A stretch of DNA of 64,000 nucleotides from a virus: positions 1-64,000 of IMG/VR virus record IMGVR_UViG_3300032307_000622. One strand, written 5' to 3'. Positions 16,189-38,444 of the stretch are shown here, piece after piece; positions within the stretch are counted from its first letter, which is position 1, and every line of letters starts with the position of its first letter. The position numbers were made by a program, and so were the translations under genes. The notes under the pieces are model-generated. The model made no database searches and was not told the origin of the DNA. It saw nothing but the letters and a program-made list of their open reading frames with translations.

Positions 16189-16217
16189 AAGACCTGAACA
16201 AGTCTTAAAACTGTTCA
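16189..16217 (+). ncRNA. 3'-UTR pseudoknot motif copy 1
   Basis: AAGAC-CT-GAACA-A-GTCTT-AAAAC-TGTTCA followed by a T-run, 13 nt after a stop. Confidence 0.65.
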
Positions 16218-16222
16218 TTTTT

Positions 16223-16945
16223 TTATTCTTTGTTGGGCTTAACTTTTCCAAATGTTGGGCTAAAGACATATTCAAGGTTTGGCTGATAATATTTCTTAGG
16301 ATCTAGAAGATCTTGCCTATCCTGTCTTTCATCAAAAGTAATTTCATTAAAGAAGCACACCATTGTAATCCTTGTGCCACTTTTAACTGGATGTACCTTG
16401 TGCTCATAGCTATATCCAGAAGGGAACATAAAGAGCTGTCCAGCTTTTGGCTTTATAGTAATGCCAAAATGAATAAACTCTAGCTCTCCACCTTCATAAT
16501 CATCATTTGGATAATAGACCAAAGATGCTGTTCTGGGCGTGGCAAAAGTATCATCTGAGTGAGATCCAAAAAACTCTCCAGGACCAGTAAACTTTGTAAT
16601 TCTTAAATCTTCTCTACTTTTTGGATCTAGGTTCCAGTGATAAAGATAAGAGTCAATAACTTCTTCAAGATTTGTGGTAACCTCTGGATCTTCCCATACC
16701 CAACATGTACGACTTTTCTTGCCAGTATCTTCGTCTAGATAATCTTCTCGAATCCATTTTCTATTTCCAGGAAGACCTCGTTCCCAGTATTCGTCATTTT
16801 CTATTTTATTAAAGAACTCCATGGAGTTTGGCCATACATCGCTATAGATATGTAGGCCAGGAATTGGGGATTCGTATGGAAATGTATTTTCTTTACGGCT
16901 TCTAGTTATCTTATTTGCCGCATCTTCTAGGCGTTCTCTGATCAT
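16223..16945 (-). CDS. 2OG-Fe(II) oxygenase, prolyl 4-hydroxylase-like
   Basis: HSD, YPNDDYEGGEL, H..HPVKSGTR motifs. Confidence 0.85.
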   Translation of the reverse strand: MIRERLEDAANKITRSRKENTFPYESPIPGLHIYSDVWPNSMEFFNKIENDEYWERGLPGNRKWIREDYLDEDTGKKSRTCWVWEDPEVTTNLEEVIDSYLYHWNLDPKSREDLRITKFTGPGEFFGSHSDDTFATPRTASLVYYPNDDYEGGELEFIHFGITIKPKAGQLFMFPSGYSYEHKVHPVKSGTRITMVCFFNEITFDERQDRQDLLDPKKYYQPNLEYVFSPTFGKVKPNKE

Positions 16946-17020
16946 TGGATTCCTTTTGTTATATAAAAATTATAGCATAAAATCTGGTACAATTAGTTGT
17001 TCAATACGAAAGGGAACACT

Positions 17021-17302
17021 ATGAAAGAATTAATTTTTGCCACTGCTGATGGTTGTACAGCCTCTGTAGAGGTCCAAGAAAAGGTAGACCTATTTAGCCA
17101 GCAGAACCCAGATGTAGTTATTACCAAGCTAAAGGCAGAAGATGACATGGATCTTTTTGCTAGCCTTTCTGGTGGTTGGAAGTTCAATGAGACACCTGCC
17201 TTTACAGCAAGAATTGACGGAGAAATTGTTGATAGACACCAGGGTAAGCTATGCGAGGTTAGGCTTGGGAAGATGTTTACTGGCGGAGACTCAGGCAACT
17301 AG
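17021..17302 (+). CDS. thioredoxin-fold protein (single Cys)
   Basis: F.A.GC..S, TPAF, DG....RHQG pattern. Confidence 0.55.
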   Translation: MKELIFATADGCTASVEVQEKVDLFSQQNPDVVITKLKAEDDMDLFASLSGGWKFNETPAFTARIDGEIVDRHQGKLCEVRLGKMFTGGDSGN

Positions 17303-17371
17303 TAGATAAATCTTTTTGGTTTATTTAATTCTTTTTTGATTTTTCTAAATCTATACCATAGTATTATTTTT

Positions 17372-18289
17372 TTAATCATCAAAAAGACCTCTTGACTCTA
17401 TTTCTTCCTTAAAAGATTTGAGCCAATACTCATGTATTAGCCTGCCAGAGTGACCATCTCTTCTCTTTAAATCTCCAGGATTAATCTTTCCATCTGGCCT
17501 AGCAGATTGAATATAGCTTTGAACTTCAGAGCTATTCATTCTAAAAAATGATTTTAAAGTTGTAATCTTGTCAATATTCTGACCTTCTAGATAATCCCAG
17601 GTAGAGCATAAAAGTTTTACGCCATTAGATTCACAATACTTTTCAAATAGTTTCCAACTTACCAAAAAGTTTATAAAAAAGTCTTTATGGTCTAGCGGAG
17701 TAGTTATGTCATTAAAAAAGTTTCGATCTTTTTGTGGTATAACCTCTGTGGGCGGAGCTTTTTGAACATATCTCCATGTTTCTTGCTCTTCTTCCCATTT
17801 AAAAAATCTTCCAAGATTTGGTAAAAGTACAAAAAAGTGTGTTGGAAATCCATACTTTTCTACATAAATCATAAAGTTGAGAATTATTTTTTGCCAACCA
17901 AAGCCAGAACGAGCTATACTATAAAAGCCATCGATGTCATGTTTATTTTTAATATTTTCGTGAAGCATTTTAGACCAAACTTCTTCTATTGGGCTAGCAA
18001 TTCCCTCAGTTTCTGAGCAGCCACCAAATAAAATATGATATTTATTGTTGTGAATATCTGTAAAGTCATCACTTCTAAACCATTCATTGTTATATTTATA
18101 TTTGATTGATCCATCATCATATTTTACATTTTGTAAATGTTCTATTGGGGTAATTGTTAACTCTCTATTGGAGTCTTGCCACTCGTGTCCAAATGCCCAG
18201 GTTATATCAAACTTATTTAAAAATACATCCCAAGCTGCAGTACTCTTTGAAAAAATATTTTCAGTTAATAAAAAATCTTTTTGGTTCAT
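17372..18289 (-). CDS. hypothetical protein (SGNH-like)
   Basis: FGGCSETEG and C-terminal RDGHSG motifs. Confidence 0.5.
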   Translation of the reverse strand: MNQKDFLLTENIFSKSTAAWDVFLNKFDITWAFGHEWQDSNRELTITPIEHLQNVKYDDGSIKYKYNNEWFRSDDFTDIHNNKYHILFGGCSETEGIASPIEEVWSKMLHENIKNKHDIDGFYSIARSGFGWQKIILNFMIYVEKYGFPTHFFVLLPNLGRFFKWEEEQETWRYVQKAPPTEVIPQKDRNFFNDITTPLDHKDFFINFLVSWKLFEKYCESNGVKLLCSTWDYLEGQNIDKITTLKSFFRMNSSEVQSYIQSARPDGKINPGDLKRRDGHSGRLIHEYWLKSFKEEIESRGLFDD

Positions 18290-18978
18290 AGCTTCCTTAA
18301 ATATATATCGTAAAAACCAATAGGGTGTAGGGCAAGTGCATCTACAGCCCAACCTTGATTAAAATGTAAGAATTCGTTCACTGCTTGAAAGGTTCCGTAT
18401 GGGGAGTCTTCAATTACTCCATCATAAATCAAATAGTCATTAAGTCCAACTAGCCCACCACTCTTGACCATTGACGAAACTTTCTTTAATACTTCTCTTA
18501 TCTCTATTCTACCATTAGTCATGTCTATGTATATATAATCATATCCAGTTTCATTTGGCAAAACTTGTGGGGCAAATCCTTTAATTGTTCTAACACTGCC
18601 ATATTTTGAAAATAGATCAATGATATATTGCTCATTAGTTTCAGGGGTAAAAAGGAGTTCGTGCTTCATATTGGTACATTTACATTCACCAAATTTACGC
18701 CATGACCAGCATTTTAGATCATTGTTAAAGGGGTCAACGAGCACTATTTCTGAGGGGGCTGTTTGCTGGCAGACTAGCTCAGAGTAGTATCCCCAGGCAA
18801 CACCAATTTCCATATACTTGATGCCAGATGGCAGAGTCTTTATGTATTCCTCACGGCTAGAAAAAATTTTGGCATTGGTTAGCTGGTTCTGATTTATTGG
18901 CCTTGCAGGCTCTATCTCACCATCATTGGAGCCTGGGAGTTCTTCATAATCTAAAAACCTTGTTGGTATTTTTGCCAT
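18286..18978 (-). CDS. class I SAM-dependent methyltransferase (Methyltransf_24-like)
   Basis: MEIGVAWG, YDYIYID, GGLVGLNDY motifs. Confidence 0.8.
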   Translation of the reverse strand: MAKIPTRFLDYEELPGSNDGEIEPARPINQNQLTNAKIFSSREEYIKTLPSGIKYMEIGVAWGYYSELVCQQTAPSEIVLVDPFNNDLKCWSWRKFGECKCTNMKHELLFTPETNEQYIIDLFSKYGSVRTIKGFAPQVLPNETGYDYIYIDMTNGRIEIREVLKKVSSMVKSGGLVGLNDYLIYDGVIEDSPYGTFQAVNEFLHFNQGWAVDALALHPIGFYDIYLRKL

Positions 18979-19020
18979 AATTATAGTATATCATGTAGCC
19001 ATTGATGCTATAATATAACC

Positions 19021-19932
19021 ATGCCATATCATGTTGGAGAAAAAGGATCTTACGGTTGCTCAGGGTACCCTGCCCTAAAAGATGATGGCACCGTAATGGG
19101 TTGTCACACGACCAAGGAAGAGGCAGCTAATCAAATTTATGCCATCAATCAGTCTGAGGGCAACATAGACAAAGCTGATCCATGTTGGGATGGGTACACT
19201 CAGCGTGGTATGAAGCCAGGAGATAACGGCAGAATGGTTCCTAACTGTGTTCCAGTATCTAAGGCAGATGCTGCGATTACTGAGGGTGACTTCGTAATAG
19301 CAATGACATCTGAGGGACCAATTGTTGGCCAAGTAGAACACGTTATGCGTGAGGGTGGAACCTATGGAGAACCAGGCAATCCATATGCGGTTCAGTCTAC
19401 ACCAGAAAATCCAGCGGTAGCTATTAGAATGCTGGAAGAGGATGATGGAGTATATTATTACACACCTTACTCTATTGGTGCACTCATGTCTGATGTAAAT
19501 AGAATTAACATGCCTAATATTAGTATGGAAGATTACGAAGATGAAAAACTTATGGATAAAGCTGAAGGCTACTCTCCTCCTGCTGGGGCTCGTGCTGCTG
19601 CTCGTCGTGCTATCAAGTTCAAAGAAGAAGGTAAGGCCAAAGGAGCAGGAACTGCAGTTGGATGGACAAGAGCTAGACAATTGGCTAATGGAGAGACACT
19701 CTCGCTAAGCACTGTAAAGCGTATGTACTCATACTTTTCACGTCACGAGGTAGACAAAAAGGGCAAAGACTGGGGCAACCAGGCTAATCCATCTAACGGA
19801 TATATCATGTGGCTTGCTTGGGGTGGGGACGCAGGGTATTCCTGGTCTCGTAGAATTGCTCAGCGTGAAGCCGATAAGGCCATGTTCTCTGATTTTGGAA
19901 AAGACTACACAAAGTCTTCCAGATTAATTTAG
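19021..19932 (+). CDS. multi-domain phage protein (head-associated type)
   Basis: PCWDGY...PNCVP repeat domain; RARQLANGE..S..TVKRMYSYFSRH...WGGDAG domain. Confidence 0.6.
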   Translation: MPYHVGEKGSYGCSGYPALKDDGTVMGCHTTKEEAANQIYAINQSEGNIDKADPCWDGYTQRGMKPGDNGRMVPNCVPVSKADAAITEGDFVIAMTSEGPIVGQVEHVMREGGTYGEPGNPYAVQSTPENPAVAIRMLEEDDGVYYYTPYSIGALMSDVNRINMPNISMEDYEDEKLMDKAEGYSPPAGARAAARRAIKFKEEGKAKGAGTAVGWTRARQLANGETLSLSTVKRMYSYFSRHEVDKKGKDWGNQANPSNGYIMWLAWGGDAGYSWSRRIAQREADKAMFSDFGKDYTKSSRLI

Positions 19933-19933
19933 C

Positions 19934-19962
19934 TTGACATTGCTTAACTAAAATGTTATAAT
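19934..19962 (+). promoter_or_regulatory. promoter of hsp20
   Basis: TTGACA-17-TATAAT with extended TG. Confidence 0.75.
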
Positions 19963-20009
19963 ATATATGCCTGCCATTTGGGGGCAATTAACTCGCTTAA
20001 TATAAGGAG

Positions 20010-20408
20010 ATGATATATATGGTTATTTTTAATGACCCATTCGGAAGCCTTGCTCAGGAATTTGAGAAGGTATTCAATCAGCCAGTAAAGGCATCTTACC
20101 CACCATACAACATCAACAAGATCTCGGACGAGCACTATGTCCTAGAGTTTGCTGTTGCTGGATTCAATCAGTATGGCATTGATATCTCAGTAGAGAAGGA
20201 TGTGCTAACTGTTAAGGGTGAGCGTCATGAGGATGAAAAGGCCAACTATGTTCACAAGGGCATTGCTGGTCGTAAGTTCACACGATCATTCAGTCTGCCA
20301 GAATATTTTGAGGTAGACAGGGCATCTATGATTGATGGAATTCTGTACATTGATTTGTACAAGCGTGTTCCAGAAGAAAAGAAGCCAAAGAAGATTAGCA
20401 TTAACTAA
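20010..20408 (+). CDS. small heat-shock protein Hsp20 (IbpA-like)
   Basis: YPPYNI, AVAGF, HKGIAGRKFTRSF, DGIL motifs. Confidence 0.92.
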   Translation: MIYMVIFNDPFGSLAQEFEKVFNQPVKASYPPYNINKISDEHYVLEFAVAGFNQYGIDISVEKDVLTVKGERHEDEKANYVHKGIAGRKFTRSFSLPEYFEVDRASMIDGILYIDLYKRVPEEKKPKKISIN

Positions 20409-20421
20409 TCTATTAGTCATG

Positions 20422-20450
20422 TTGTCCTGGGCACGACAAAAAACTGCCCA
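20422..20450 (+). ncRNA. 3'-UTR pseudoknot motif copy 2
   Basis: TTGTC-CT-GGGCA-C-GACAA-AAAAC-TGCCCA, 13 nt after the hsp20 stop. Confidence 0.65.
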
Positions 20451-20513
20451 AATCACTTGACAAGCTGTCTATTTTGCAGTATCATATTAATATTAAACAA
20501 AGTTAGGTTAAAA

Positions 20514-20801
20514 ATGATTAAACCACTAGAAGACAAGGTAGTTCTAGAGCTTCCCGAAGAGGAAGAAAAGACTACACAGTTTGGCCTTATTATTGCAGGG
20601 TCAAGCGATGAGAAACCACAAGAGGCTATTGTTGTTGCTGTAGGTCCAGGTGCTAGGTTTGCAGACGGAACACTTATGGAGCTAGACCTTAAGGTTGGTG
20701 ACAAGGTAATCTTTTCAAAGTATCAAGGAACGGAAGTTGAGCACGAGGGCAAAGACTATTTAATTATTGCCTATCGTGATATTTTTGCAGTCATTGACTA
20801 A
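20514..20801 (+). CDS. groES: co-chaperonin GroES
   Basis: IKPLEDKV, EKPQE..VVAVGPG, KVGDKVIFSKY.GTEV motifs. Confidence 0.95.
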   Translation: MIKPLEDKVVLELPEEEEKTTQFGLIIAGSSDEKPQEAIVVAVGPGARFADGTLMELDLKVGDKVIFSKYQGTEVEHEGKDYLIIAYRDIFAVID

Positions 20802-20824
20802 CTAGCAAAAAGATTGGATGGCGT

Positions 20825-21244
20825 ATGATATTACATGGACCAGCCTATACTGAAATTGGGCAAATACTTTTAACCAATACCGAAACTCTTGAGTACGAGG
20901 CTGATTGGGCAACAAACGGTCTTCAGGCAATTGCTGAAGTAATTGCTGAACATAGAGGACATGTTGAGGACAAGTATGGCTATGGGCCATTGCTAACATC
21001 TAACGAAGGTGATCATGAGTTTGACAACAAAACTTTTACTATGCGTACTTATTGTTGGTGTGATGGTGCTTTGGAAGGCCATGAAGATGCCTGTCCACCC
21101 AATTTTGTCTACAAGCCTAGCGGTATTAATATTACTTGGTATAAGCATGCTGGTAGAGGTATTACAGCAAATATAGAATGGATGCCAGCATTAGATTGGC
21201 ACAGAATAGTAAACGAATGTATAGAAAGTGTAGCTAAACAATGA
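20825..21244 (+). CDS. hypothetical protein
   Basis: YCWCD, PNF, WYKHAGRG motifs. Confidence 0.65.
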   Translation: MILHGPAYTEIGQILLTNTETLEYEADWATNGLQAIAEVIAEHRGHVEDKYGYGPLLTSNEGDHEFDNKTFTMRTYCWCDGALEGHEDACPPNFVYKPSGINITWYKHAGRGITANIEWMPALDWHRIVNECIESVAKQ

Positions 21245-21513
21245 ATAATATTCTACAAGAAAACGAAGAGCATGGACATGAAGAGCATGGGCATGAAGAG
21301 GTAGTGACTACAGTTGAAGTTCACGAGCACGGCGATGGACTAGATGGCTTGTTTGAGGTAATGTTTGGCTTTGAGCATGTTGTTGCAGAGTTTTTTTGGA
21401 ATGCAATCTTTTTGATAGCTGGTTTTGCAATTTCAAGATTTATTGGTTGGCAAAAAATTCACAAGTATATTGATGACAGACATGGTGTCAAGCACAATAA
21501 AGATGAATACTGA
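21241..21513 (+). CDS. His-rich small membrane protein
   Basis: EEHGHEEHGH repeat, TM segment, HKYIDDRHGVKH. Confidence 0.65.
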   Translation: MNNILQENEEHGHEEHGHEEVVTTVEVHEHGDGLDGLFEVMFGFEHVVAEFFWNAIFLIAGFAISRFIGWQKIHKYIDDRHGVKHNKDEY

Positions 21514-21664
21514 TTCAGAAAATATCTGGGCAGAGATAGCAAAGATTAACAGAGAGCTTGACAGAATAGATATTGAGCTTAGTATGAACAGAGAAGCTCT
21601 TCAATCAATTGAAATTGATTTAATGCTTTTTAAAACTGAACTTGACTATCTTACAGAGGGCTGA
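21503..21664 (+). CDS. small coiled-coil protein
   Basis: MNTDSENIWAEIAKINRELDRID... Confidence 0.5.
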   Translation: MNTDSENIWAEIAKINRELDRIDIELSMNREALQSIEIDLMLFKTELDYLTEG

Positions 21665-21731
21665 TAGCTCAGCTGGTTAGAGCAGCGGACTCATAATCCG
21701 TCGGTCATGGGTTCAAGTCCCATTCAGCCCA
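21658..21731 (+). tRNA. tRNA with CAT anticodon (probably Ile2, otherwise elongator Met)
   Basis: Acceptor GGGCTGA/TCAGCCC; anticodon loop CTCATAA; GTTCAAGTC. Confidence 0.9.
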
Positions 21732-21736
21732 CAGAA

Positions 21737-21809
21737 GCTCCTGTATTCCAATGGTAGAGAAAGAAGACTTAAAATCTTTACAGTGTGGGTTCGAATCCCA
21801 CCAGGAGTA
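21737..21809 (+). tRNA. tRNA-Leu(TAA), short variable arm
   Basis: Acceptor GCTCCTG/CAGGAGT; anticodon loop CTTAAAA; GTTCGAATC. Confidence 0.85.
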
Positions 21810-21854
21810 CAAAAAATGGTATAATATTTCCTGTTATAGATTGGATCCCAAATT

Positions 21855-22148
21855 TTGAGTAAAAAGAATAAACCAGAATGGATGCTTGCATTAAAAACAA
21901 TGCGTAATCCAAAATATTGGAATAGGGCTAACACTGTAGAGTTTTTTGCCTTTATGGTAAAACTGGTAATCATATTCCCAGGACTTATATTTGGTATTCA
22001 ATTTTGGTGGCTATACATTTTTGCATTGGTGTCAAGTCTTGCATTGATATGGTCATCTACTATAAAAACTTTGCCAACAATTATTTTGTTTAACATTGGC
22101 TGGACAATCTTGGCTAGTGCGGCAATAATAAAGTATTGGTTTTTTTAA
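21855..22148 (+). CDS. small multi-pass membrane protein
   Basis: Three hydrophobic segments. Confidence 0.65.
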   Translation: MSKKNKPEWMLALKTMRNPKYWNRANTVEFFAFMVKLVIIFPGLIFGIQFWWLYIFALVSSLALIWSSTIKTLPTIILFNIGWTILASAAIIKYWFF

Positions 22149-22160
22149 TAAGGAGAGCTT

Positions 22161-23363: not shown

Positions 23364-23366
23364 AAT

Positions 23367-30722: not shown

Positions 30723-30739
30723 GAAATATCCTTTACAAA

Positions 30740-31799: not shown

Positions 31800-31912
31800 G
31801 AGGGGGAAACTAGAACCAACGACAATTCCAGTCTCCCCCTCTGTGATAGCCAGCCCAACCCCTCAGACCGATACGCTATCACTCTTGACAGGGAGTAATC
31901 TCAACCTGCCAA
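31800..31912 (-). ncRNA. three-hairpin structured element A
   Basis: Three consecutive stems after the 31923 stop; G-U pairs favour the minus strand; paralog at 32672-32769. Confidence 0.5.
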
Positions 31913-31922
31913 ATCTATTTAG

Positions 31923-32132
31923 TTATGATACAGAACTTGCCTTACGAAGTGTATCAAGGCTGACAGAGTCAATGAACTTGCCGTTCTTGCGGTATACAAT
32001 TCGTTCTGATGTTCCATAACGAGTGTTCCATACCTCTAGGTAAGGAATAACATCTCCTTCACGCTTAGCCTTCTTCGTCACCTTAGTTAGACGCTTTGGC
32101 TGAGCCTTCTTGGCCTTTGGAAATACTGCCAC
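31923..32132 (-). CDS. small basic hypothetical protein
   Basis: Lys-rich; GTG start with AAGGAG SD. Confidence 0.6.
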   Translation of the reverse strand: MAVFPKAKKAQPKRLTKVTKKAKREGDVIPYLEVWNTRYGTSERIVYRKNGKFIDSVSLDTLRKASSVS

Positions 32133-32193
32133 TTTTTTCTCCTTGTTGTTTATGTATTAATTGTAGACTATTCAGTTATGTTTGTCAATAGCT

Positions 32194-32451
32194 TTATCCA
32201 AGCAAATCATCTAGAGTTTCAAAGCCTGTGTCTTCTATCTCCATGCCAGTTAGAAAAAGATCGAAAGTTTCATTAACAAACTTTTCAGCCATTGTACTTG
32301 GCTCTACGATCCTGTTTGCCAGCATGTATGCTAGGGGCAGTCCGATATCGTTATACTCAATAAAGTCCTTAAACTCTTCGTCATCACGATAGTTGAGCCA
32401 GAGGTCTCCCAGTATCTCTGTCTTACTAGTAAAAGAAGTTGTTTCCAAAAT
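32194..32451 (-). CDS. hypothetical protein
   Basis: ILGDLWLNYRDDEEFKDFIEYNDIGLPLAY; start uncertain. Confidence 0.6.
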   Translation of the reverse strand: MLETTSFTSKTEILGDLWLNYRDDEEFKDFIEYNDIGLPLAYMLANRIVEPSTMAEKFVNETFDLFLTGMEIEDTGFETLDDLLG

Positions 32452-32632
32452 CTTCTTCCTCTCTCTCATACCTTGCGGCATCAGCAATTTCCATAAATCT
32501 TCTATAAGTGACATTTGGTGCTGACCTTGCTATGTATTCTCCAACTTGGTCAAGGTCTAGTGTCACATTGTTTACGAGTTTAGATAATTGCTCTGCCACC
32601 TTTTCATTATCGCTTTTTGTTCGCTTTCCCAA
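32426..32632 (-). CDS. hypothetical protein
   Basis: EKVAEQLSKLV...LDLDQVG; promoter TTGACA-17-TACAAT upstream. Confidence 0.6.
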   Translation of the reverse strand: MGKRTKSDNEKVAEQLSKLVNNVTLDLDQVGEYIARSAPNVTYRRFMEIADAARYEREEEDFGNNFFY

Positions 32633-32671
32633 TTATACAAATCTCCTGTGCTTATTGTACCAAAAATGGTT

Positions 32672-32769
32672 GGGGGTGTCAAGAGTGAAAGTAGGAAATC
32701 TCTCAACACCCCCTCAGTGCCCAGCTACCCAACCAGGCACCTTACTAGGGAGCTAGGCTCAACCTAATA
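32672..32769 (-). ncRNA. three-hairpin structured element B with anti-RBS loop
   Basis: Stems CTTATTAGG/CCTAGTAAG, GTGCCTGG/CTGGGCAC and GGGGGTGTTGAGAG/CTCTTGACACCCCC; last loop ATTTCCTACTTTCA. Confidence 0.55.
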
Positions 32770-32775
32770 AGATTA

Positions 32776-33123
32776 TTAAACTACATCTTCCCAGTACTTG
32801 GGCAGTTCATCGAAATACTGCTTTAGCCTATCTGACATCTTATCCCAATACTCTAGCTTGAAGCCGTGTAGGCCATACCATGTGTCAACCTCAGTCCTGA
32901 AGTATTCATCCTGGTTTAAACCCAAGGCCACAATCTCCTCACCTGTTAATCTAATAGGGTCATTGCTGTACTCTTGAGAGTTACCCTCATTATACGTGTA
33001 GACATGAATGCACCAGCTAGCAGGGTCCCAATATGACTCCCCTCCAGCATCTAGCTCCTCTGGCATATAGATGTTTAAATCATAGTCAATAAGAGTCTTA
33101 TCTCTGTTCTTGTTCCTATACAT
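32776..33123 (-). CDS. hypothetical acidic protein
   Basis: ORF; the MYRNK start overlaps the upstream stop. Confidence 0.6.
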   Translation of the reverse strand: MYRNKNRDKTLIDYDLNIYMPEELDAGGESYWDPASWCIHVYTYNEGNSQEYSNDPIRLTGEEIVALGLNQDEYFRTEVDTWYGLHGFKLEYWDKMSDRLKQYFDELPKYWEDVV

Positions 33124-33508
33124 ACTTTGTAACATAGCCGTAGCCCTCACATTCTTGGCAGTCTGGGTCTCCCCATTCGTTGCCACGCTTCTCTAACATT
33201 TCTTCGTCTTCACTGTAGCACTCACATTCTGTTTCTACAGATAGGATAACTTCATAGTCTGTGTCATCTTGCCACGGTACCTCGCAAACATGATAACTAA
33301 TCCTATTAACCCAAGCAATACCTGCCACTAGCAGGCTAGACATGTCTCCGTCCACCCATGTCCAAACATAGTGTGGGTCTAGGGATTTGATGTACTCCCA
33401 TTCCTCACCATAGGTTTCAAAGTTGTAATTGTTGGTGGGCACGAGGTGATTTTGCTTTGGCTTGAATTCTTCTTCAAAAGCATCCCAACCTTGGATTTCT
33501 CTAAACAT
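33116..33508 (-). CDS. hypothetical protein
   Basis: FETYGEE...VWTWVDGD...VNRI motif; C-terminal CxxCxG. Confidence 0.7.
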   Translation of the reverse strand: MFREIQGWDAFEEEFKPKQNHLVPTNNYNFETYGEEWEYIKSLDPHYVWTWVDGDMSSLLVAGIAWVNRISYHVCEVPWQDDTDYEVILSVETECECYSEDEEMLEKRGNEWGDPDCQECEGYGYVTKYV

Positions 33509-33532
33509 TTCCTACTCTACTTTCTACTGGGG

Positions 33533-33763
33533 TTATTTCCTAAAGACATTATAGCCTGACATACCGACTTTGTCAACAGCAGTTCTCTGAACATCCATCC
33601 AAGCAGTCTCACCAAAGAAATACTTAGGTCGCTGCCCTTCAATAACTAACTTATAAAAGTCATAGTAGCGATCAGACTCCATAACCTGGACGGTATTGTA
33701 GTGATAGATCCTGGTCCAAGTGGTATCTTTTACACTAGGCTTTTTATCAACATAAATCTGCAT
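33533..33763 (-). CDS. hypothetical protein
   Basis: KYFFGETAW.DVQR motif. Confidence 0.6.
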   Translation of the reverse strand: MQIYVDKKPSVKDTTWTRIYHYNTVQVMESDRYYDFYKLVIEGQRPKYFFGETAWMDVQRTAVDKVGMSGYNVFRK

Positions 33764-34003
33764 TAGACTCTCTTTCCTTTGTATAAATCTACACCAAGAC
33801 CTTTATTGATCTTCTTGCCACACCATGTACATGCTCCATAGCTATAGTAATGCATGTGTTTACTCATCTACTTATCTCCTAGGGTTGAAGGGTTTGATAA
33901 TCAATTATCTCAAATTCTGCGAAAAAAGTCAAGCTGTTCGTAATTCTTTTTTATCACTAACAATATTATGTAAGTTATGCTGTCGCCCCAGAATGGGGTC
34001 CTG

Positions 34004-34213
34004 TTATAGACCCCACTCCTCTGTAAAGTTATCAAGTTCAATGTGACGAACTTTGTCATCATCTCCAGCAAGGATAGCCTCAACATAGTCAAGCCTGTCC
34101 ATAGAAGACATGTCCTCTAGATTAGACCACTGCTGTTCGTTGAGGGCATTGAAGTCAAACTCCAATACGATAGAAGAGCCGTTGTATTCACCGTCATTAG
34201 TTACCCATGCCAT
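34004..34213 (-). CDS. hypothetical protein
   Basis: Coupled ORF with GGAGG SD. Confidence 0.6.
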   Translation of the reverse strand: MAWVTNDGEYNGSSIVLEFDFNALNEQQWSNLEDMSSMDRLDYVEAILAGDDDKVRHIELDNFTEEWGL

Positions 34214-34386
34214 TAGTCATCCTCCTGTATTCTAATTGTCGCAAGAAGTATTCCGAGAGCCTGCCGTGCTGACATTATGTCGAGAGCAGGATTGTCTATC
34301 GCATTCTTGATTGTTCTTTCTACATAGGCAATGGTGTCAACCATACCTTGCTCGTAGCCAATCTGTTCTAGTTCTGATACAGCCAT
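34213..34386 (-). CDS. hypothetical protein (57 aa)
   Basis: Hand-translated MAVSELEQIGYEQGMVD...; coupled to both neighbours. Confidence 0.6.
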   Translation of the reverse strand: MAVSELEQIGYEQGMVDTIAYVERTIKNAIDNPALDIMSARQALGILLATIRIQEDD

Positions 34387-34598
34387 CAGTAGTTGTCCTC
34401 GTATTTCGGTAGTTGGTCATAGGGATAGCCAATAGCACCTAGAACATTTTCATAGGCACTGATAAGGCCATTGAAATAGTCCTTAGAACTATCGTTCATG
34501 TCTAGCATGTTGTAGTGTGGCACAAGCTCATCTAGTCTTCCCAATAGATACTTTGCCAAACCGTTCATAGTTACATAGTCTGCGTCTTTACTCAACAA
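34386..34598 (-). CDS. hypothetical protein
   Basis: ORF in the coupled minus-strand run. Confidence 0.55.
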   Translation of the reverse strand: MLSKDADYVTMNGLAKYLLGRLDELVPHYNMLDMNDSSKDYFNGLISAYENVLGAIGYPYDQLPKYEDNY

Positions 34599-34722
34599 CT
34601 GTTGCCTCCCATGCTCCGTCAGGTAGATTAGCGTGATACTCTAATGCCATGTCAATAGCCTCATCTTCATCTAAGGCTTCTACTTCATACTCGCAAGTAT
34701 AAGTAACTAGATACTTCTTCAT
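34588..34722 (-). CDS. small acidic protein, VEAxxExEA family
   Basis: MKKYLVTYTCEYEVEALDEDEAIDMA... Confidence 0.6.
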   Translation of the reverse strand: MKKYLVTYTCEYEVEALDEDEAIDMALEYHANLPDGAWEATVVE

Positions 34723-34847
34723 TTTACTTTCTCCAACATCTCTGCCAACTTCTTCAGTTGCTCAGGGGTAAGGTTGTTCAATATATCTTCGTTGATTAGG
34801 TTGCTATTTGTCCACATAGAAACCATTGTAGCGTTAGGGTCTGACAT

Positions 34848-35216
34848 TTATTCCTCGTCTTCCTCTCCAAAGAATTGTCCAATAACAGTAACAAACTTAT
34901 CAGTCTCATCATCATTGGTAAACACAGCGTTGATGAATCTCAGGGAACAAGAATCCTCATACCAAGTAAGGACTAGGTCTTTCATCGCAGCAGGGGTATC
35001 AATAATAGTCTTATCATAACCATAGCCAATCATCTTCTCAGTCTGCTTAGCATCCATGTTTAGATAAATTTTGTGACAGCCATCAAAGGATACTGAGTCT
35101 GTTTGGTACATCAGGTCATCTAGGTTTGTTTCCTGGTTTCCCTCGCATAGATTACAGAAAGGGGTACAGTCAAAGTTGCCTTCGTGATTAGGGCATTCGA
35201 TGGTGGTATCAATCAT
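34848..35216 (-). CDS. hypothetical protein
   Basis: CPNHEGNFDCTPFCNLCEG followed by FDGCHKIY...SCSLRFI. Confidence 0.7.
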   Translation of the reverse strand: MIDTTIECPNHEGNFDCTPFCNLCEGNQETNLDDLMYQTDSVSFDGCHKIYLNMDAKQTEKMIGYGYDKTIIDTPAAMKDLVLTWYEDSCSLRFINAVFTNDDETDKFVTVIGQFFGEEDEE

Positions 35217-35400
35217 TGTCATCATCATCTTCATCCTCCTCTAGCTCCTCAACATCAATGTCATAGACACCATCATAGGTAATGTCGTTGTCCATAGAAT
35301 CTCCCCAACTAGTCCAAGCTAGCTGTTCGGCTGCCTCTGCTGATTCTGCTTCTAGCTCACCAGCAAAGTCAATACGCATCTTCACATAGTATTTGGGCAT
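35209..35400 (-). CDS. small acidic protein, VEAxxExEA family
   Basis: MPKYYVKMRIDFAGELEAESAEAAEQLA; SD AGAAAGTAG. Confidence 0.65.
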   Translation of the reverse strand: MPKYYVKMRIDFAGELEAESAEAAEQLAWTSWGDSMDNDITYDGVYDIDVEELEEDEDDDDND

Positions 35401-35553
35401 TTATCTACTTTCTTTAGGGTAGGTCTATTATGACATGACCCTCAGACATTTTGTAGTTTCTGGGAAAAAAGTTATGCGGTCGTAATTATTTTTTTATCTT
35501 AATCTATATGATTATTGAAAACCTGGGCGGCTCAATTTCGATCCATGAATGGA

Positions 35554-35580
35554 GGGCAGTTTATACTCATGCCCAGGAGT
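35554..35580 (-). ncRNA. 3'-UTR pseudoknot motif copy 3
   Basis: ACTC-CT-GGGCA-T-GAGT-AT-AAAC-TGCCC, 5 nt after the DUF932 stop. Confidence 0.65.
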
Positions 35581-35585
35581 GTTGC

Positions 35586-36590
35586 TTAGTTAGCTAAAAC
35601 CAACTGAAGCAGTCTGTTCTTTTCAGCAGTTGTCACTGGGTCAAAACCAGAAGCAGCTGCTAGGATAGATTCGTTAGAACCACCACGAGCAGAGCGGTAC
35701 CAGTCTAGTCTTTCAGTTAGAGCGTTGAAAGCTCCCCACTTAGTTCCAGCGATTGTGTTGTTATACTCACCAACATAGATTGCGTTGATTAGGTCAATCT
35801 TATCGTTGTGCTTTTTGAATGAGCCCTTAGAGTCTTTTTCTGGGGCAGGGTAAGCGAGTTCAACAATCTTGTCAAACTGTGCCTTGGTGATTTCAGTTTC
35901 AATCATAGCCTTAGCCATCTCATCAAACTTATCCATGTAAGCGTTAGCCAAACCAAGAGCCTCTCTAGCTTGCTGAACTTTGCCAGAAGCTGTTGCGGTG
36001 TGTCTAATCTTGAATGACTGCTTGACACTTCCACCTCTGCCACGATTACCAAGAGCAAGGTTTAGAGTGTTAGCACATACAACACGAACTGGTGTGATAC
36101 TAGCTTGAATGGCAACAGAACCATCATGGCTAGTGTTGATTAGAAGATAAGTGTTTACCTTATCAGACACGCCGTTAGGGTCTAGGATAGTCTCACGCTC
36201 AAGAGCAAGAGAACCAAAAACCTGTCTGCCACCCTTGATAGAGCCAGCAGTCTCCCAACGACCTCCGCCATCTAGCATCAGGTCTCCGAAATCAAACAAG
36301 TCTTCATTCTGAAGCGGAACATAACGCTCACCAACTACGCCAAGAACATCATTTTGTTCTGAGTTGAATGGGTTAGTTCTAGTTACGAATGAGTAACCCT
36401 TGTCTGAAGCAAAACCATCAGGAATTGCTACATCTTCCAAGCGAACATTCCAGTTAGACAAGTGTGCCAAGTCTAGCATCTCTGCTGTGGTTACTTCCTT
36501 GTCAAAGACTGTGCCTAGCCCATGCCAAGCTGGCTGGCGAAGGGAAGCAAAAGCGGTCTGTCCGTTTACGGTCTCTAGCTCATGTGCCAT
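35586..36590 (-). CDS. DUF932 / phage-plasmid protein (TIGR03299-like)
   Basis: MAHE...PAWHGLG, LGVVG.RY...QN, ETAGS..GGR, NTSHDGS, TPVRVVCANTL, RHT motifs. Confidence 0.88.
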   Translation of the reverse strand: MAHELETVNGQTAFASLRQPAWHGLGTVFDKEVTTAEMLDLAHLSNWNVRLEDVAIPDGFASDKGYSFVTRTNPFNSEQNDVLGVVGERYVPLQNEDLFDFGDLMLDGGGRWETAGSIKGGRQVFGSLALERETILDPNGVSDKVNTYLLINTSHDGSVAIQASITPVRVVCANTLNLALGNRGRGGSVKQSFKIRHTATASGKVQQAREALGLANAYMDKFDEMAKAMIETEITKAQFDKIVELAYPAPEKDSKGSFKKHNDKIDLINAIYVGEYNNTIAGTKWGAFNALTERLDWYRSARGGSNESILAAASGFDPVTTAEKNRLLQLVLAN

Positions 36591-36780
36591 GTTTTTCTAC
36601 TTTCTGTTAGGGGATTTCTAATAATCTAATTATAGGGTTACCCTCCGACATTGTCAAGGATTCAGGGCAAAATAATTAATCTTCGTAAATAACAGTTTGG
36701 TAACAAAATGGGGGCCGCCCAAATCCACCCACTCAGTATTTGTGATCACGAGATCTTCAGCTTTTGTGTGGGTGGCTGGG

Positions 36781-36808
36781 TGAGCAGTTTAGCGACATAC
36801 TCAGGTCG
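36781..36808 (-). ncRNA. 3'-UTR pseudoknot motif copy 4
   Basis: CGAC-CT-GAGTA-T-GTCG-CT-AAAC-TGCTCA. Confidence 0.65.
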
Positions 36809-36817
36809 TTTGTCTGT

Positions 36818-37264
36818 TTAGATAAGTTCCATTACAGACGAGTAAGATGAAGCAGAAACTTCCTCTTGCGTAGTCATACGAAGCACCTTGAGATTACGCT
36901 CTAGGATTTCCTTACGAGTTGAGTGTTCCCTACCAAACCACTCACGCTGGTTAGGCTTGCTTGGCTCAGTTGGCTTCTCTCCCAACCCAATTAGTTCTGG
37001 GTCTAGGACAAGTTCCAGCCTACCATTGTAGTTGGTTGAGATACGAATAACGCTATCGTAGTCATAACCAATCTTGGCAGAGTTGTTCTTGAGATACTCA
37101 GAAACAGCACTAGCAACCTTCTTCTTGTATTCCTCAGTTGCCAACTCATACTGCTTACGCTCATCTGCGTAGTTTGCTACTGCCTCGTCAATCTTCGCAA
37201 TAGACTTCTCAATGTCTGCGATTAGAACGGATACAGGGATTTTTACGGACATAGTTCTAGCCAT
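36818..37264 (-). CDS. hypothetical coiled-coil protein
   Basis: SD AGAAAGTAG; own promoter. Confidence 0.7.
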   Translation of the reverse strand: MARTMSVKIPVSVLIADIEKSIAKIDEAVANYADERKQYELATEEYKKKVASAVSEYLKNNSAKIGYDYDSVIRISTNYNGRLELVLDPELIGLGEKPTEPSKPNQREWFGREHSTRKEILERNLKVLRMTTQEEVSASSYSSVMELI

Positions 37265-37333
37265 AATTTATTTCTACTTTCTTTCAGGGTAATTACATTA
37301 TACATAGGGGGTAGGACATTTATTTAGTTGTGG

Positions 37334-37363
37334 TGAGCAGTTTATCTTGACTTGCTCAGGTCA
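37334..37363 (-). ncRNA. 3'-UTR pseudoknot motif copy 5
   Basis: TGAC-CT-GAGCA-A-GTCA-AGAT-AAAC-TGCTCA. Confidence 0.65.
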
Positions 37364-37373
37364 GAGGAGGTGA

Positions 37374-37520
37374 TTACTTTACAGTAGTCCAGCGAGGCTG
37401 TCCGTTTACATCAAGGCGAACACGAGCAGAGCCACTAGGGTTCTTTACGATTTCCTTGATAGTTCCAACGACACCAGACTTAGCGGTGGTGAACTGTGAG
37501 CCAACAGTTAGATTTACCAT
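37374..37520 (-). CDS. small beta-rich protein (48 aa)
   Basis: MVNLTVGSQFTTAKSGVVGTIKEIVKNPSGSARVRLDVNGQPRWTTVK; AAAGGAA SD; own promoter and pseudoknot. Confidence 0.7.
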   Translation of the reverse strand: MVNLTVGSQFTTAKSGVVGTIKEIVKNPSGSARVRLDVNGQPRWTTVK

Positions 37521-37725
37521 TTTGCTTCCTTTTCCGCCCCAGAGGGACTGTTTTGATTTATTACCAACCTTTGTTGATAGGTCTATTGTAGCCTAACCCT
37601 CCGACATTATCAAGCATTGTTTTATAACATTTCTGGGGAAAATTGTTATACTTCGTAACTTGACAAAATGTTGATCTTGGGGCGACACAAAACCCCCAGG
37701 ATGTCAAGTCCCAGGGGTAGTGTGT

Positions 37726-38274
37726 TTAGACTGCTTGTTCTTCTTTGAGGTACGAGTATACTCCGCACTTTGCTCTCTCACAATAGTCCTCATTAGTTAT
37801 CTCACGGACCTCTTGGAAAGTCAGAGTCAAAGTATTGTCTCCGTAGGTTGTAGCAAAGGTTTGGTTATCAAGATTTATGATGTAGATACCCTCACAGAAT
37901 AAATCATCATTCTTGAACTCTGGGTCTAGCACTAGCGGCACAGGGTCAGTAGCGTTGACAATTACCTCAAGAATACCAGCACCAGTATCTCTAGTTAGGC
38001 TAGGATAGTCCTTACTAAACCTCTCGCCATCTTCCAGACTTCCCATACCATCTTCTCTAAAGTAGTTGGCATAGATTTTCTTTAGCTCCTCATCACTTGC
38101 CTGATAGGTCAGGTGTAGGTCAAAGTTTTTCTCTAGCTTTTCGATGTTCGTTGGCTTAGACAAAAAGTTTACAATAGTGATACCCTGCCCACTTGGATAG
38201 TGGTCCCATTGACCATACTGGGCTACTACTGTCTTTCCGTTGTAAATTACCTCTGTAATTCCTCTAGTTCCCAT
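37726..38274 (-). CDS. hypothetical protein (MGTR...AQYGQWDHYPSGQG family)
   Basis: Start at MGTRG after AGAAAGTAGG. Confidence 0.7.
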   Translation of the reverse strand: MGTRGITEVIYNGKTVVAQYGQWDHYPSGQGITIVNFLSKPTNIEKLEKNFDLHLTYQASDEELKKIYANYFREDGMGSLEDGERFSKDYPSLTRDTGAGILEVIVNATDPVPLVLDPEFKNDDLFCEGIYIINLDNQTFATTYGDNTLTLTFQEVREITNEDYCERAKCGVYSYLKEEQAV

Positions 38275-38379
38275 TTTCCTACTTTCTTTTGTTGGTGAGA
38301 TTATTATACATTGGGGGTCAGACATTTAGGTTCTTAATTCGTAACTGTTATAAAGCTGTGATCTGGGCCGCCCTAAAGG

Positions 38380-38444
38380 TGGCCAGTTTTTCGTCATGGC
38401 CAGGACGTGGTCCACATGTTAGAAAGGATAAGAAGTGTGGACCA
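38380..38444 (-). ncRNA. anti-SD hairpin plus pseudoknot copy 6
   Basis: TGGTCCACA-[CTTCTTATCCTTTCTAACA]-TGTGGACCA, then CGTC-CT-GGCCA-T-GACG-AA-AAAC-TGGCCA. Confidence 0.6.

Follow-up and report, generated by a model that had tools for sequence, protein, structure and literature searches.

A compact H-type RNA pseudoknot, often placed shortly after stop codons, is widespread in phage and bacterial sequences

The analyzed window, a 64,000-nucleotide stretch of a 116,302-bp phage genome, contains six similar sites of about 28 nucleotides, which raises the question of what this element is and what it could do for the transcripts carrying it. Fold, strand, placement and wide distribution could be established from the sequences, and its function is discussed here as a set of more and less probable readings. 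All six sites are copies of a compact 27–29-nt H-type RNA pseudoknot built from two helices, P1 and P2. The original prediction had located all of them, with one coordinate (36781) off by a single base (36782). Each copy matches a strict descriptor and is listed with its score in the covariance model R1:

16189–16216, plus strand: pseudoknot copy 1, strict descriptor match, 33.8 bits
16189–16193, plus strand: P1 of copy 1
16194–16195, plus strand: CU of copy 1
16196–16200, plus strand: P2 of copy 1
16201, plus strand: junction base of copy 1
16202–16206, plus strand: P1' of copy 1
16207–16211, plus strand: A-rich loop of copy 1
16212–16216, plus strand: P2' of copy 1
20422–20449, plus strand: pseudoknot copy 2, strict descriptor match, 36.6 bits
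35554–35580, minus strand: pseudoknot copy 3, strict descriptor match, 41.1 bits
36782–36808, minus strand: pseudoknot copy 4, P2 with one G-U pair, strict descriptor match, 41.3 bits
37335–37363, minus strand: pseudoknot copy 5, A-rich loop of 8 nt, strict descriptor match, 25.9 bits
38381–38407, minus strand: pseudoknot copy 6, strict descriptor match, 33.7 bits

Searching both strands of the entire genome with the strict descriptor (P1 of 4 bp, CU, P2 of 5 bp, a 1-nt junction, P1', a loop ending in AAAC, P2') yielded exactly these six sites, compared to a mean of 0.09 and a maximum of 2 matches in 200 dinucleotide-preserving shuffles. A looser pattern also gave six matches (0.63 expected), of which five are true copies; it misses copy 4 because of its G-U pair, and the remaining match (52390–52410) is unrelated. 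The covariance model, suggested as a check, recovered the same six copies at 25.9–41.3 bits, while the rest of the window scored at most 8.0 bits and the genome outside the window at most 10.4 bits. Five of the six window copies were part of the R1 training alignment; copy 5 was left out and was still found.

The helices read as originally described. P1 pairs as AAGAC/GTCTT, TTGTC/GACAA, ACTC/GAGT, CGAC/GTCG, TGAC/GTCA and CGTC/GACG in copies 1 to 6, and P2 occurs as GAACA/TGTTC, GGGCA/TGCCC (twice), GAGTA/TGCTC, GAGCA/TGCTC and GGCCA/TGGCC; pairing is kept in every copy, in copy 4 by way of its G-U pair, and the CT and AAAC proposed to be invariant are present in 6/6. The overall consensus is P1 NNWC, CU, P2 GRGYA, one base W, P1' GWNN, loop NNAAAC and P2' UGCYC. 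Matches in related viral contigs (80 contigs, 1.32 Mb) were almost exclusively in sense orientation (219 versus 1 antisense), and their 135 distinct cores comprise 41 P1 and 21 P2 pair combinations. When matches were selected without demanding any pairing, all nine pairs were formed in 181/262 sense matches and eight pairs in 27 more, whereas 0/33 antisense matches showed eight or nine. In an alignment chosen by sequence alone, 84.3% of the cells pair, a level reached in 0/500 shuffles (59.5% shuffled), and the covariation score is 0.600 versus 0.211 for shuffled and 0.08–0.16 for slid alignments. Both helices covary, with 8/9 pairs varying on both sides. Covariation is retained in homologues, and the original view of a structured, sense-oriented RNA located 3' of open reading frames (ORFs) holds. 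Among 120 pattern matches in bacterial genomes, the three unconstrained P1 pairs were all formed in 71 and two of them in 43; sliding the 3' partner by −1, +1 or +2 columns left all three formed in 1, 2 and 27 matches, respectively.

Conservation extends to the junctions. With the first loop left free, CU was found in 219/237 matches. Among the 135 unique cores, the junction base is A in 62, U in 66, C in 6 and G in 1, the P1 closing pair is C-G in 109, G-C in 21 and U-A in 5, and the third P1 pair is A-U or U-A in 131. AAAC and the following U are invariant; this U pairs with an invariant A, and the next base is G or A, within a Watson-Crick stem of 5 bp. These conserved junction nucleotides (C-G closing pair, CU, A-U pair, W base and AAAC) point to one particular predicted tertiary fold rather than to any stable hairpin.

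The motif is widespread and not private to the source phage. At least 120 further IMG/VR stretches contain it, as do genomes or MAGs carrying the labels of many bacterial phyla and the cultured Cyanophage S-RIM4. At the end of the orthologous DUF932 gene, 56 of the 80 related contigs carry a pseudoknot 5–12 nt past the stop codon (55 of them at 5–9 nt), with 37 different sequences among these 56 loci. The original prediction had mentioned neither this wide spread nor the resemblance to the viral element coremin described below.

Regarding placement, the proposal that five copies follow a stop codon within 5–13 nt is borne out by copies 1 to 5, with the spacers counted up to P1 as originally drawn. 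Copy 1 lies 13 nt past the TAA of ORF 15768–16175, and directly 3' of it there is a T-run followed by a convergent gene on the minus strand (16223–16945). Copy 2 is found 13 nt past the TAA of an Hsp20-family gene (20010–20408), and a promoter-like TTGACA-17-TATCAT (20457–20485) begins 8 nt downstream. The minus-strand copies 3, 4 and 5 are located 5 nt past the TAA of the DUF932 gene (35586–36590), 9 nt past that of ORF 36818–37264 and 10 nt past that of a short ORF of 48 codons (37374–37520), the last with an extended −10-like TGTATAAT about 30 nt downstream. Directly behind the motif, a simple promoter test gave a positive result in 6/188 copies, so that the arrangement of copies 2 and 5 is not general. 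Copy 6 is the exception: no credible gene lies directly upstream, the TAA 11 nt upstream ends a frame of merely 8 codons, and the copy is 56 nt past a 23-codon ORF with two hairpins in between:

38409–38463, minus strand: two hairpins abutting copy 6 upstream
38463–38457 pairing with 38450–38444, minus strand: hairpin 1
38443–38436 pairing with 38416–38409, minus strand: hairpin 2, whose 19-nt loop contains UCCUUUCU

A CCTTTC-loop hairpin also lies upstream in 34/188 unique pseudoknot contexts of relatives; judged by eye from the printed rows, its stems vary in sequence among loci and keep their complementarity. Copy 6 and its relatives close a hairpin-rich non-coding stretch, and the element therefore does not need a stop codon.

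The motif is located 5–13 nt past ORF ends. In four sets, the distance from stop codon to P1 core dropped off sharply below 5 nt and was most often 5–6 nt, closer spacing being almost never found, and the next ORF starts 50–300 nt away. A tRNA gene starts 3–11 nt past the pseudoknot in 15/189 unique family copies (a 16th at 27 nt) and 5–14 nt past it in 15/130 copies of an unselected IMG/VR sample. One contig (L139) carries a type III hammerhead ribozyme behind the pseudoknot twice, one of them scoring 50.5 bits in Rfam. Of 34 unique matches to pseudoknot plus CTGATGA, 16 passed a strict hammerhead descriptor, and in 11 of these 16 the cleavage site is 5–8 nt past the pseudoknot; in the unselected viral sample, a hammerhead core follows the motif in 0/130 (strict) or 3/130 (relaxed) copies. 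At 17 bacterial loci, a conserved micro-ORF reads into or through the pseudoknot, which starts about 7 nt past a conserved Cys codon (read by eye). A hairpin of at least 4 bp starting 0–6 nt downstream was found in 53/189 copies (33.4 expected), in 10/69 (10.9 expected) and in 1/6 window copies.

The pseudoknot belongs to no named Rfam family, in agreement with the original statement that none could be assigned. Rfam 15 returned only tRNAs across the window at the gathering threshold, no match at the six sites at E up to 10 (positions 16000–39000), only four antisense chance matches (7.8–9.4 bits) for 61 nt around copy 2 at E up to 10, and only tRNAs and one hammerhead for 22 further motif-carrying loci, results to be read with the caveat that pseudoknots are beyond what Rfam models encode and that scores of very short motifs are low. 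The element shares size class (~28–34 nt) and outline with luteovirus-type −1 frameshift pseudoknots (beet western yellows virus) and the preQ1-I aptamer: the first loop is short and opens with C or U, a single base forms the junction, and an A-rich loop runs across the minor groove of stem 1. It differs in that it has no slippery site in front, lies behind stop codons rather than in ORFs or 5' leaders, matches nothing in Rfam (E up to 10) and has no conserved junction base. A −1 programmed frameshift signal was rejected, as the last 12 nt plus stop contained a slippery X XXY YYZ heptamer in 0/165 copies and the median −1 extension is 5 codons. The preQ1-I riboswitch sits in the 5' leader and has a conserved ligand-pairing base in its junction loop; this assignment was rejected based on the lack of an Rfam match, the variable junction (n = 135) and the position 5–13 nt behind ORFs. 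Any self-cleaving ribozyme, ligand-sensing riboswitch or recoding signal is highly improbable, even though a compact pseudoknot with invariant unpaired bases would suit one. The 61-nt search (E up to 10) gave zero ribozyme or riboswitch matches, a separate hammerhead is present where cleavage is wanted, and read-through adds a median of 8 codons. A ligand sensor, listed originally, is unlikely in view of the variable junction base (mostly A or U) and of the several copies per genome behind ORFs.

Among described elements, the Xrn1-resistant coremin pseudoknot found in plant RNA viruses comes closest (Dilweg, Gultyaev and Olsthoorn 2019, PMC6546385; Dilweg et al. 2023, PMC10520033, PMC10321173), as judged from excerpts of its published description. 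According to these excerpts, coremin, or xrRNA-C, occurs in beny-, cucumo- and other plant and fungal RNA viruses (PMC6546385, PMC10520033, PMC10321173) and stalls Xrn1 one nucleotide ahead of its first hairpin. A G-C closing pair abolishes and a U-A pair weakens Xrn1 resistance (PMC6546385), the adenines and the CU in the crossing-loop region are essential in mutants, and an essential A-A-C-U-A spacer after the hairpin pairs with the loop (PMC6546385, PMC10321173). Both elements are very small H-type pseudoknots, coremin being built on a 3–4-bp hairpin. A C-G closing pair is preferred in both, and 16% of the phage cores carry the G-C pair that is inactive in coremin. The coremin loop starts with a pyrimidine and ends with A followed by G, A or U, and that of the phage motif starts with Y and ends with A-W; the crossing loop of coremin ends in UUAAAC before a U pairing with a loop A, and AAAC is likewise followed by such a U in the phage motif. 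Both are found in 3' untranslated regions or between genes, in some viruses several times per genome. The positions matching those of coremin are the most conserved ones of the phage motif. However, the coremin loop has 4, 6 or 7 nt (YGAD, YGNNAD) with G fixed at position 2 (PMC6546385, PMC10520033), whereas the phage loop has 8 nt (CUGRGYAW) with U at position 2 and G at position 3. Stem 2 consists of five Watson-Crick pairs compared to three partly non-canonical ones in coremin, and coremin requires for Xrn1 resistance a second hairpin directly downstream, which is not consistent here. Furthermore, the phage motif is found in DNA phages and bacteria, which lack Xrn1, and coremin in RNA viruses. 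Based on the described features, membership in coremin/xrRNA-C fails on the loop G position and the downstream hairpin, and the resemblance may represent convergence.

Among the functions listed originally (exonuclease block, non-canonical terminator, protein-binding tag, small ribozyme or ligand sensor), context favours a putative exonuclease block or 3'-end cap. Our best reading, which we hold tentatively, is that the pseudoknot could well be a barrier to decay that caps the upstream message at its 3' end. It would form the first transcribed part of the upstream gene's 3' untranslated region, at the nearest spot left unmelted by a ribosome that waits at the stop codon, and would remain folded there. 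The transcript end could arise by termination, by an RNase P cut at an adjoining tRNA or by an adjoining hammerhead; after either cut, only a few bases would separate the pseudoknot from the new 3' end. Exonucleases chewing back in the 3'-to-5' direction would halt at the fold, so that the coding region upstream would survive together with its stop codon, and the RNA downstream would be removed. Several observations speak against a cap: most copies have no recognised 3'-end-forming feature nearby (of 130 unselected copies, 38 have a U-tract and 15 a tRNA), 9–10 bp of stacked helix is little to stop a 3' exonuclease, and translation of the 17 bacterial micro-ORFs through the pseudoknot fits poorly with the need to stay folded. 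In addition, coremin as described blocks a 5'-to-3' exonuclease and scanning ribosomes rather than 3'-to-5' enzymes, and a block of this type would protect downstream, not upstream, RNA.

A coremin-like roadblock to machines moving 5' to 3' (RNase J, ribosomes missing the stop codon, or Rho), shielding the next cistron, tRNA or ribozyme, is an unlikely alternative. As far as the coremin excerpts go, the two elements have in common the C-G loop-closing pair, the A-U pair right after AAAC, the A-rich crossing loop, and a loop beginning with a pyrimidine and ending with A then A or U (PMC6546385, PMC10321173); coremin stalls Xrn1, blocks scanning ribosomes and also stimulates frameshifting, and the spacing of about 7 nt from the micro-ORF Cys codon (17 bacterial loci, by eye) is a ribosome-pausing distance. 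However, spacing is tight to the upstream stop and loose to the downstream start, a protected piece in front of a hammerhead or tRNA would measure merely 4–8 nt, and the hairpin required by coremin is inconsistent. Quite improbable is a non-canonical terminator or pause signal, in which P2 would close in the manner of a terminator stem, with P1 and the A-rich loop adding stiffness. The T-run behind copy 1 at a convergent gene junction, the strong promoter-like site 8 nt beyond copy 2, and the lack of enrichment of canonical terminator-like sites in the region (6 and 8 versus 12.7 and 11.4 in shuffles) would suit it. A U-tract (5 or more T in 8) lies behind 1/6 window copies and 23/189, 19/70 and 38/130 copies elsewhere (12–29%) and is missing from 5/6 and 70–88%, respectively; as an intrinsic terminator, the element was rejected, stem and U-tract occurring together in this minority only. 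At many loci, tRNA genes, hammerheads or the ribosome-binding site of the next gene lie within a few bases, so that transcription must often continue past the motif. The scarcity of U-tracts and the tRNA genes and ribozymes directly downstream at some loci thus weaken a general terminator role.

It is decidedly improbable that the pseudoknot serves as a tag recognised by a conserved protein or the ribosome, tuning termination, recycling or re-initiation or recruiting a processing enzyme. Conservation across phyla exceeds the needs of pairing (CU, AAAC, the A-U pair and the third P1 pair), and by general ribosome-footprint geometry a spacing of 5–6 nt would bring the knot to the point where the mRNA enters a ribosome that has the stop codon in its A site. 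Yet a non-systematic look identified no gene travelling with the motif across very different phages and bacteria, and a stop codon at 5–6 nt is missing from copy 6 and from many bacterial copies.

The proposed decay barrier has parallels among known stabilisers. REP elements, the RNase III-made 3' hairpins on T7 early mRNAs and the MALAT1 triple helix, whose tRNA-like neighbour is cleaved by RNase P, follow the same proposed logic: a fold that directly precedes a site of processing or the end of a transcript keeps 3' exonucleases away from the RNA upstream of it. They differ in being hairpins or a U-A-U triple helix without sequence likeness, and such a role is putative for the phage motif; the order of pseudoknot and tRNA parallels that of MALAT1 and mascRNA. 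Hammerhead ribozymes flank single genes in phage and prophage operons (Perreault et al. 2011, PMC3088659; Rfam RF00008), and the available excerpts of PMC3088659 do not mention the pseudoknot. Unlike the hammerhead, the pseudoknot has no ribozyme core or Rfam match and mostly stands alone. As far as these excerpts describe the hammerheads, both elements fill the slot from stop codon to next gene in phage small-gene arrays, and some contigs show the order stop codon, pseudoknot, hammerhead.

The original prediction had placed six copies of an H-type pseudoknot in the window, and all six were found where it had put them:

16189-16216, plus strand: pseudoknot, copy 1
20422-20449, plus strand: pseudoknot, copy 2
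35554-35580, minus strand: pseudoknot, copy 3
36782-36808, minus strand: pseudoknot, copy 4
37335-37363, minus strand: pseudoknot, copy 5
38381-38407, minus strand: pseudoknot, copy 6

Each copy runs from the first strand of helix P1 (4-5 bp) through CU, the first strand of helix P2 (5 bp), one base, the closing strand P1' and an A-rich loop ending in AAAC to P2'. A strict descriptor of these features (nine core pairs, CU and AAAC) was run over the whole genome on both strands and matched exactly these six sites, compared with a mean of 0.09 matches and a maximum of 2 in 200 dinucleotide-preserving shuffles. A covariance model likewise singled out the six sites (25.9-41.3 bits), with scores of at most 8.0 in the rest of the window and 10.4 in the rest of the genome. 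This model was built from 150 copies, all with a 6-nt loop, and held P1 as structure and P2 as sequence. Five of the six window copies were part of its training set, and copy 5, which was outside it, still reached 25.9 bits.

The window covers the initial 64 kb of one contig of 116,302 bp, whose G+C content is 39.8%. Genes for portal, head protease, major capsid and tail proteins, a DnaB-like helicase, a large DNA polymerase, terminase and ribonucleotide reductase were found, and based on this content of structural, replication and terminase genes the contig was classified as a tailed phage genome. It further carries six tRNA genes and accessory genes for Hsp20, a 2OG-Fe(II) oxygenase, a carbamoyltransferase and a halogenase-like protein. 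The capsid protein shares 39-43% identity with those of Streptomyces phages of about 130 kb; at the DNA level, blastn against named phages found nothing close, at most weak matches to genes of mycobacteriophages and Streptomyces phages. A true pseudoknot copy was absent from one capsid relative, Streptomyces phage Belfort. More than 580 relatives of the contig are present in IMG/VR. Among the sequencing runs listed for positions 34800-39300, seven were of DNA and none of RNA.

We analyzed the strandedness of the motif in a family of 80 related contigs (1.32 Mb), oriented by their DUF932 gene. The descriptor matched 219 times in sense and once in antisense direction. When the first loop was left unconstrained, CU occupied it in 219 of 237 sense matches, and the other 18 were close to the antisense background of 12; when the loop tail was freed, AAAC accounted for 219 matches and the remaining 215 were near the antisense count of 186. 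The junction was exactly one base long in 219/227 matches. In total, 135 distinct cores were obtained, comprising 41 P1 and 21 P2 pair combinations. For a non-circular reselection, sites were chosen by nine fixed letters with pairing left free: nine pairs were formed in 181 and eight in 27 of the 262 sense matches, whereas none of the 33 antisense matches formed nine or eight. The pairing seen to be kept across the six copies was also kept in homologues. In an alignment of a random 144 of 179 distinct sequences plus five window copies, with background kept in, 84.3% of paired cells were complementary versus 59.5% after shuffling (a level attained by 0/500 shuffles), and the covariation score was 0.600 versus 0.211 for shuffled alignments and 0.08-0.16 for slid partners. 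Both sides vary in eight of the nine pairs, the ninth being an invariant A-U. These data show a genuine pseudoknot that is read in the same direction as the genes; the strand bias and the covariation rule out a chance pattern or a DNA-level site. The seven bases 3' of P2' are nearly devoid of G in the family and frequently include ACC.

Five copies had been described as lying 5-13 nt after a stop codon, and copies 1-5 indeed follow the TAA of an ORF at 13, 13, 5, 9 and 10 nt, respectively. Across the family, no copy has its 4-bp P1 core closer than 5 nt to the stop, and the spacing peaks at 6 (5, 6 and 7 nt in 21, 38 and 14 of 225 cases). Matches in bacterial genomes showed a mode of 5 nt with one exception at -1, loci selected for a downstream CTGATGA (the hammerhead-linked set) a mode of 6 nt with one copy at 4, and an unselected viral sample, composed of IMG/VR loci found by pattern, a mode of 5 nt with 6/98 below 5. 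The next ORF in the family starts 50-300 nt downstream. Behind the DUF932 orthologue, a pseudoknot follows the stop by 5-12 nt in 56/80 loci (5-9 nt in 55 of them), and these represent 37 different sequences with 13 P1 types and 8 P2 types; the strict descriptor found none in the remaining 24 loci. Its position is coupled to where the preceding ORF ends and not to where the following one begins.

The motif occurs beyond the phage of the window. One fixed-length IUPAC pattern matched at least 118 stretches of a collection of species-representative bacterial and archaeal genomes. Among the 120 bacterial matches listed, the three P1 pairs left free by the pattern were all formed in 71 and two were formed in 43; shifting the P1 partner by -1, +1 or +2 columns lowered the number with all three to 1, 2 and 27, respectively. 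Labels among these listed matches include Saccharibacteria, Omnitrophota, Desulfobacterales, Aminicenantes, Planctomycetes, Chloroflexi, cyanobacteria, Lacticaseibacillus, Clostridium and others, many of the records being metagenome-assembled genomes that may include phage contigs. The same pattern matched at least 120 stretches in IMG/VR, and 134 unique full copies were present in 89 of 118 new loci read among the matches listed. The cultured Cyanophage S-RIM4 carries exactly one full copy (L360 1499-1525, corresponding to MK493321.1 45613-45639) between two hypothetical genes, leaving 10 nt to the annotated stop upstream and 28 nt to the annotated start downstream.

At 17 loci, distributed over Omnitrophota, Desulfobacterota, Aminicenantes and other phyla (L090, L107, L111, L133, L143, L147, L154, L155, L163, L166, L168, L170, L174, L175, L180, L183 and L194), a conserved micro-ORF enters the pseudoknot in one fixed frame. 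Its peptide ends approximately in R-[YF]-M-x-x-R-x-x-H-C-x-E-G-C, and its stop codon (TGA or TAA) is built from the conserved letters of the motif itself. Judged by eye from N-termini, an Rrf2-type regulator is encoded downstream in at least 6/17 loci and a class II ribonucleotide reductase in one. The arrangement looks like a leader-peptide device, possibly for cysteine sensing.

Next, we investigated the downstream neighbours of the motif. A tRNA gene lies within 110 nt of 16/189 unique family copies, and in 15 of these cases it starts 3-11 nt past the pseudoknot, nine times at position 5. The unselected viral sample contained 15/130 copies with a tRNA gene starting 5-14 nt downstream. The neighbour was tRNA-Asp in 11/16 family cases and 12/15 of the unselected sample, although many loci are related and the counts are not independent. 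Examples with a following tRNA gene are L036 9408, L048 511, L037 11027, L359, L247 and L274, among others. On a Polynucleobacter-labelled contig (L139), type III hammerheads stand directly behind both copies, one of them exceeding or matching the Rfam threshold with 50.5 bits, and the predicted cleavage site lies 6 nt past P2' in both. A search that required CTGATGA yielded 38 viral stretches carrying it 8-38 nt downstream of the pseudoknot. A strict type III hammerhead descriptor was passed by 16/34 unique pseudoknot-CTGATGA matches, with cleavage positions 5-8 nt past the pseudoknot in 11 and 13-21 nt in 5; the Rfam threshold was reached by 2 of the 20 CTGATGA stretches tested, or 3/21 pseudoknot-hammerhead loci including L139. 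The strict hammerhead core was found downstream of 0/130 copies in the unselected viral sample. Hammerhead adjacency is real but a minority feature, and we rejected it as a rule.

Behind many of the bacterial and viral copies, the following gene has its ribosome-binding site and start codon within 10-60 nt. Copy 2 ends 8 nt before a promoter-like site (TTGACA-17-TATCAT), and copy 5 lies about 30 nt before TGTATAAT, as judged by eye. Promoter adjacency is claimed for copy 2 only, and by eye for copy 5; as a general rule it was rejected, with 6/188 copies passing a strict test versus 1 upstream control.

The original prediction could assign the motif to no named family, and Rfam searches of the window and 42 other loci at gathering and permissive thresholds returned nothing at the motif. 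In the full-text literature covered, which includes few subscription journals, no description of the motif in phages or bacteria was found, and one may exist in print. Searching with words of the motif sequence retrieved only unrelated primers, and the available passages of Perreault et al. 2011 on gene-flanking hammerheads make no mention of it. The nearest described relative is coremin, an Xrn1-resistant small pseudoknot of plant RNA viruses. According to three reports, coremin is built from a small hairpin, closed by a C-G pair and bearing a YGAD or YGNNAD loop, and a conserved spacer behind it in which A-A-C-U-A is essential; later work describes loop and spacer as forming a short pseudoknot stem. 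Xrn1 stalls one nucleotide before the first hairpin, resistance requires a second hairpin, and the element also blocks scanning ribosomes and stimulates frameshifting (PMC6546385, PMC10520033, PMC10321173). The phage motif resembles coremin in its preference for a C-G closing pair, a loop that begins with a pyrimidine and ends in A-W, and AAAC-U with an adjacent A-U pair. Unlike coremin, it has an 8-nt loop with U instead of G at position 2 and no consistent second hairpin, which was therefore rejected as part of the motif. Since two defining features fail, we regard the motif as coremin-like and not as a member. The likeness could stem from common descent or from convergence.

We classed the motif with small exonuclease-blocking or message-end RNA structures. 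The simplest account of its placement, and the one we tentatively favour, is a decay barrier that would cap the upstream message against 3' exonucleases. The pseudoknot would begin at the first position left folded by a ribosome sitting on the stop codon, a geometry suggested by ribosome footprints and by the 5-9-nt spacers of frameshift signals. Next to an RNA-cutting site, cleavage would place the pseudoknot 3-8 nt away from the 3' end it creates on the upstream fragment. In general, the 3' end of a capped message could come from termination, RNase P cleavage at a tRNA, hammerhead activity or an event further downstream. This reading is weakened because most copies lack a recognisable 3'-end-forming neighbour, because the knot is small, because 17 bacterial loci translate a conserved micro-ORF into it, and because coremin acts on enzymes moving the opposite way.

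The resemblance to coremin in turn raises the alternative of an obstacle to factors travelling 5' to 3', for instance RNase J, ribosomes or Rho, which by this analogy may apply but seems unlikely to us. A terminator role fits a minority of copies and is rather improbable; a U-tract lies downstream of 1/6 window copies and of 23/189, 19/70 and 38/130 copies elsewhere. There is a slim chance that the element serves as a tag for a protein or the ribosome. Ribozyme, riboswitch and recoding functions are very unlikely even taken jointly, and recoding by read-through or frameshift was rejected by a test of the copies. A broader and doubtful proposal would make the motif a prokaryotic counterpart of the coremin exonuclease-resistant RNA, a minimal knot stalling processive RNA-translocating enzymes and used by plant RNA viruses, DNA phages and bacteria alike, which together with hammerheads and tRNAs would act as gene-end punctuation splitting long phage transcripts into separately protected messages. 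Under this proposal, bacteria and their phages would have their first dedicated class of exonuclease-resistant RNA.

If the decay barrier against 3' exonucleases holds, the motif would be a dedicated, sequence-defined 27-nt message-end cap found in many phyla and absent from the RNA family catalogue. It would help to explain how phages that carry small early genes in arrays control the lifetime of each message, account for the presence of hammerheads between phage genes, so far without an explanation, and tie them to the anti-Xrn1 fold of plant viruses. It would also provide a very short, transferable stabilising element for engineered bacterial mRNAs and a new signal for gene-end annotation of metagenomic phage contigs. 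S-RIM4, as a cultured carrier, offers a usable experimental system, and the fold is compact enough to be studied by mutation, enzymology and structure determination.

Between 19934 and 45518, the window contains many near-consensus sigma-70-type promoter-like sites, each before one or a few small genes. Three match at 12/12 positions:

19934-19962, plus strand: promoter-like site
33576-33548, minus strand: promoter-like site
36657-36629, minus strand: promoter-like site

About ten more match at 11/12 positions, and the total of weaker matches in this stretch is no higher than in shuffles. One of few canonical terminator-like structures here, a 10-bp G+C-rich hairpin followed by TTTTG (37692-37718, minus strand), stands directly after the gene at 37726-38325 and is followed by a promoter-like site (TTGATA-17-TACAAT) at 37613-37585; canonical terminator-like sites in this region are no commoner than in shuffles.

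Copy 6 has no credible ORF directly upstream and adjoins two hairpins located after a 23-codon ORF. The hairpins (38409-38463, minus strand) directly precede the pseudoknot, and the second has a 19-nt loop holding UCCUUUCU, which we take to be a match to the 3' tail of 16S rRNA (anti-Shine-Dalgarno region). This hairpin with its CCTTTC loop precedes 34/188 unique pseudoknot contexts in the related contigs (e.g. L001 ~7548-7587 and L036 ~6928-6967), and in the rows printed, judged by eye, its stem letters vary between loci with complementarity kept. It may represent a small RNA, or an element of the 3' UTR, that pairs with ribosome-binding sites. The hydrophobic 23-codon ORF (38464-38535, minus strand) possibly encodes a small membrane peptide, and its start overlaps the last stop base of a GP88-family gene (TAATG).
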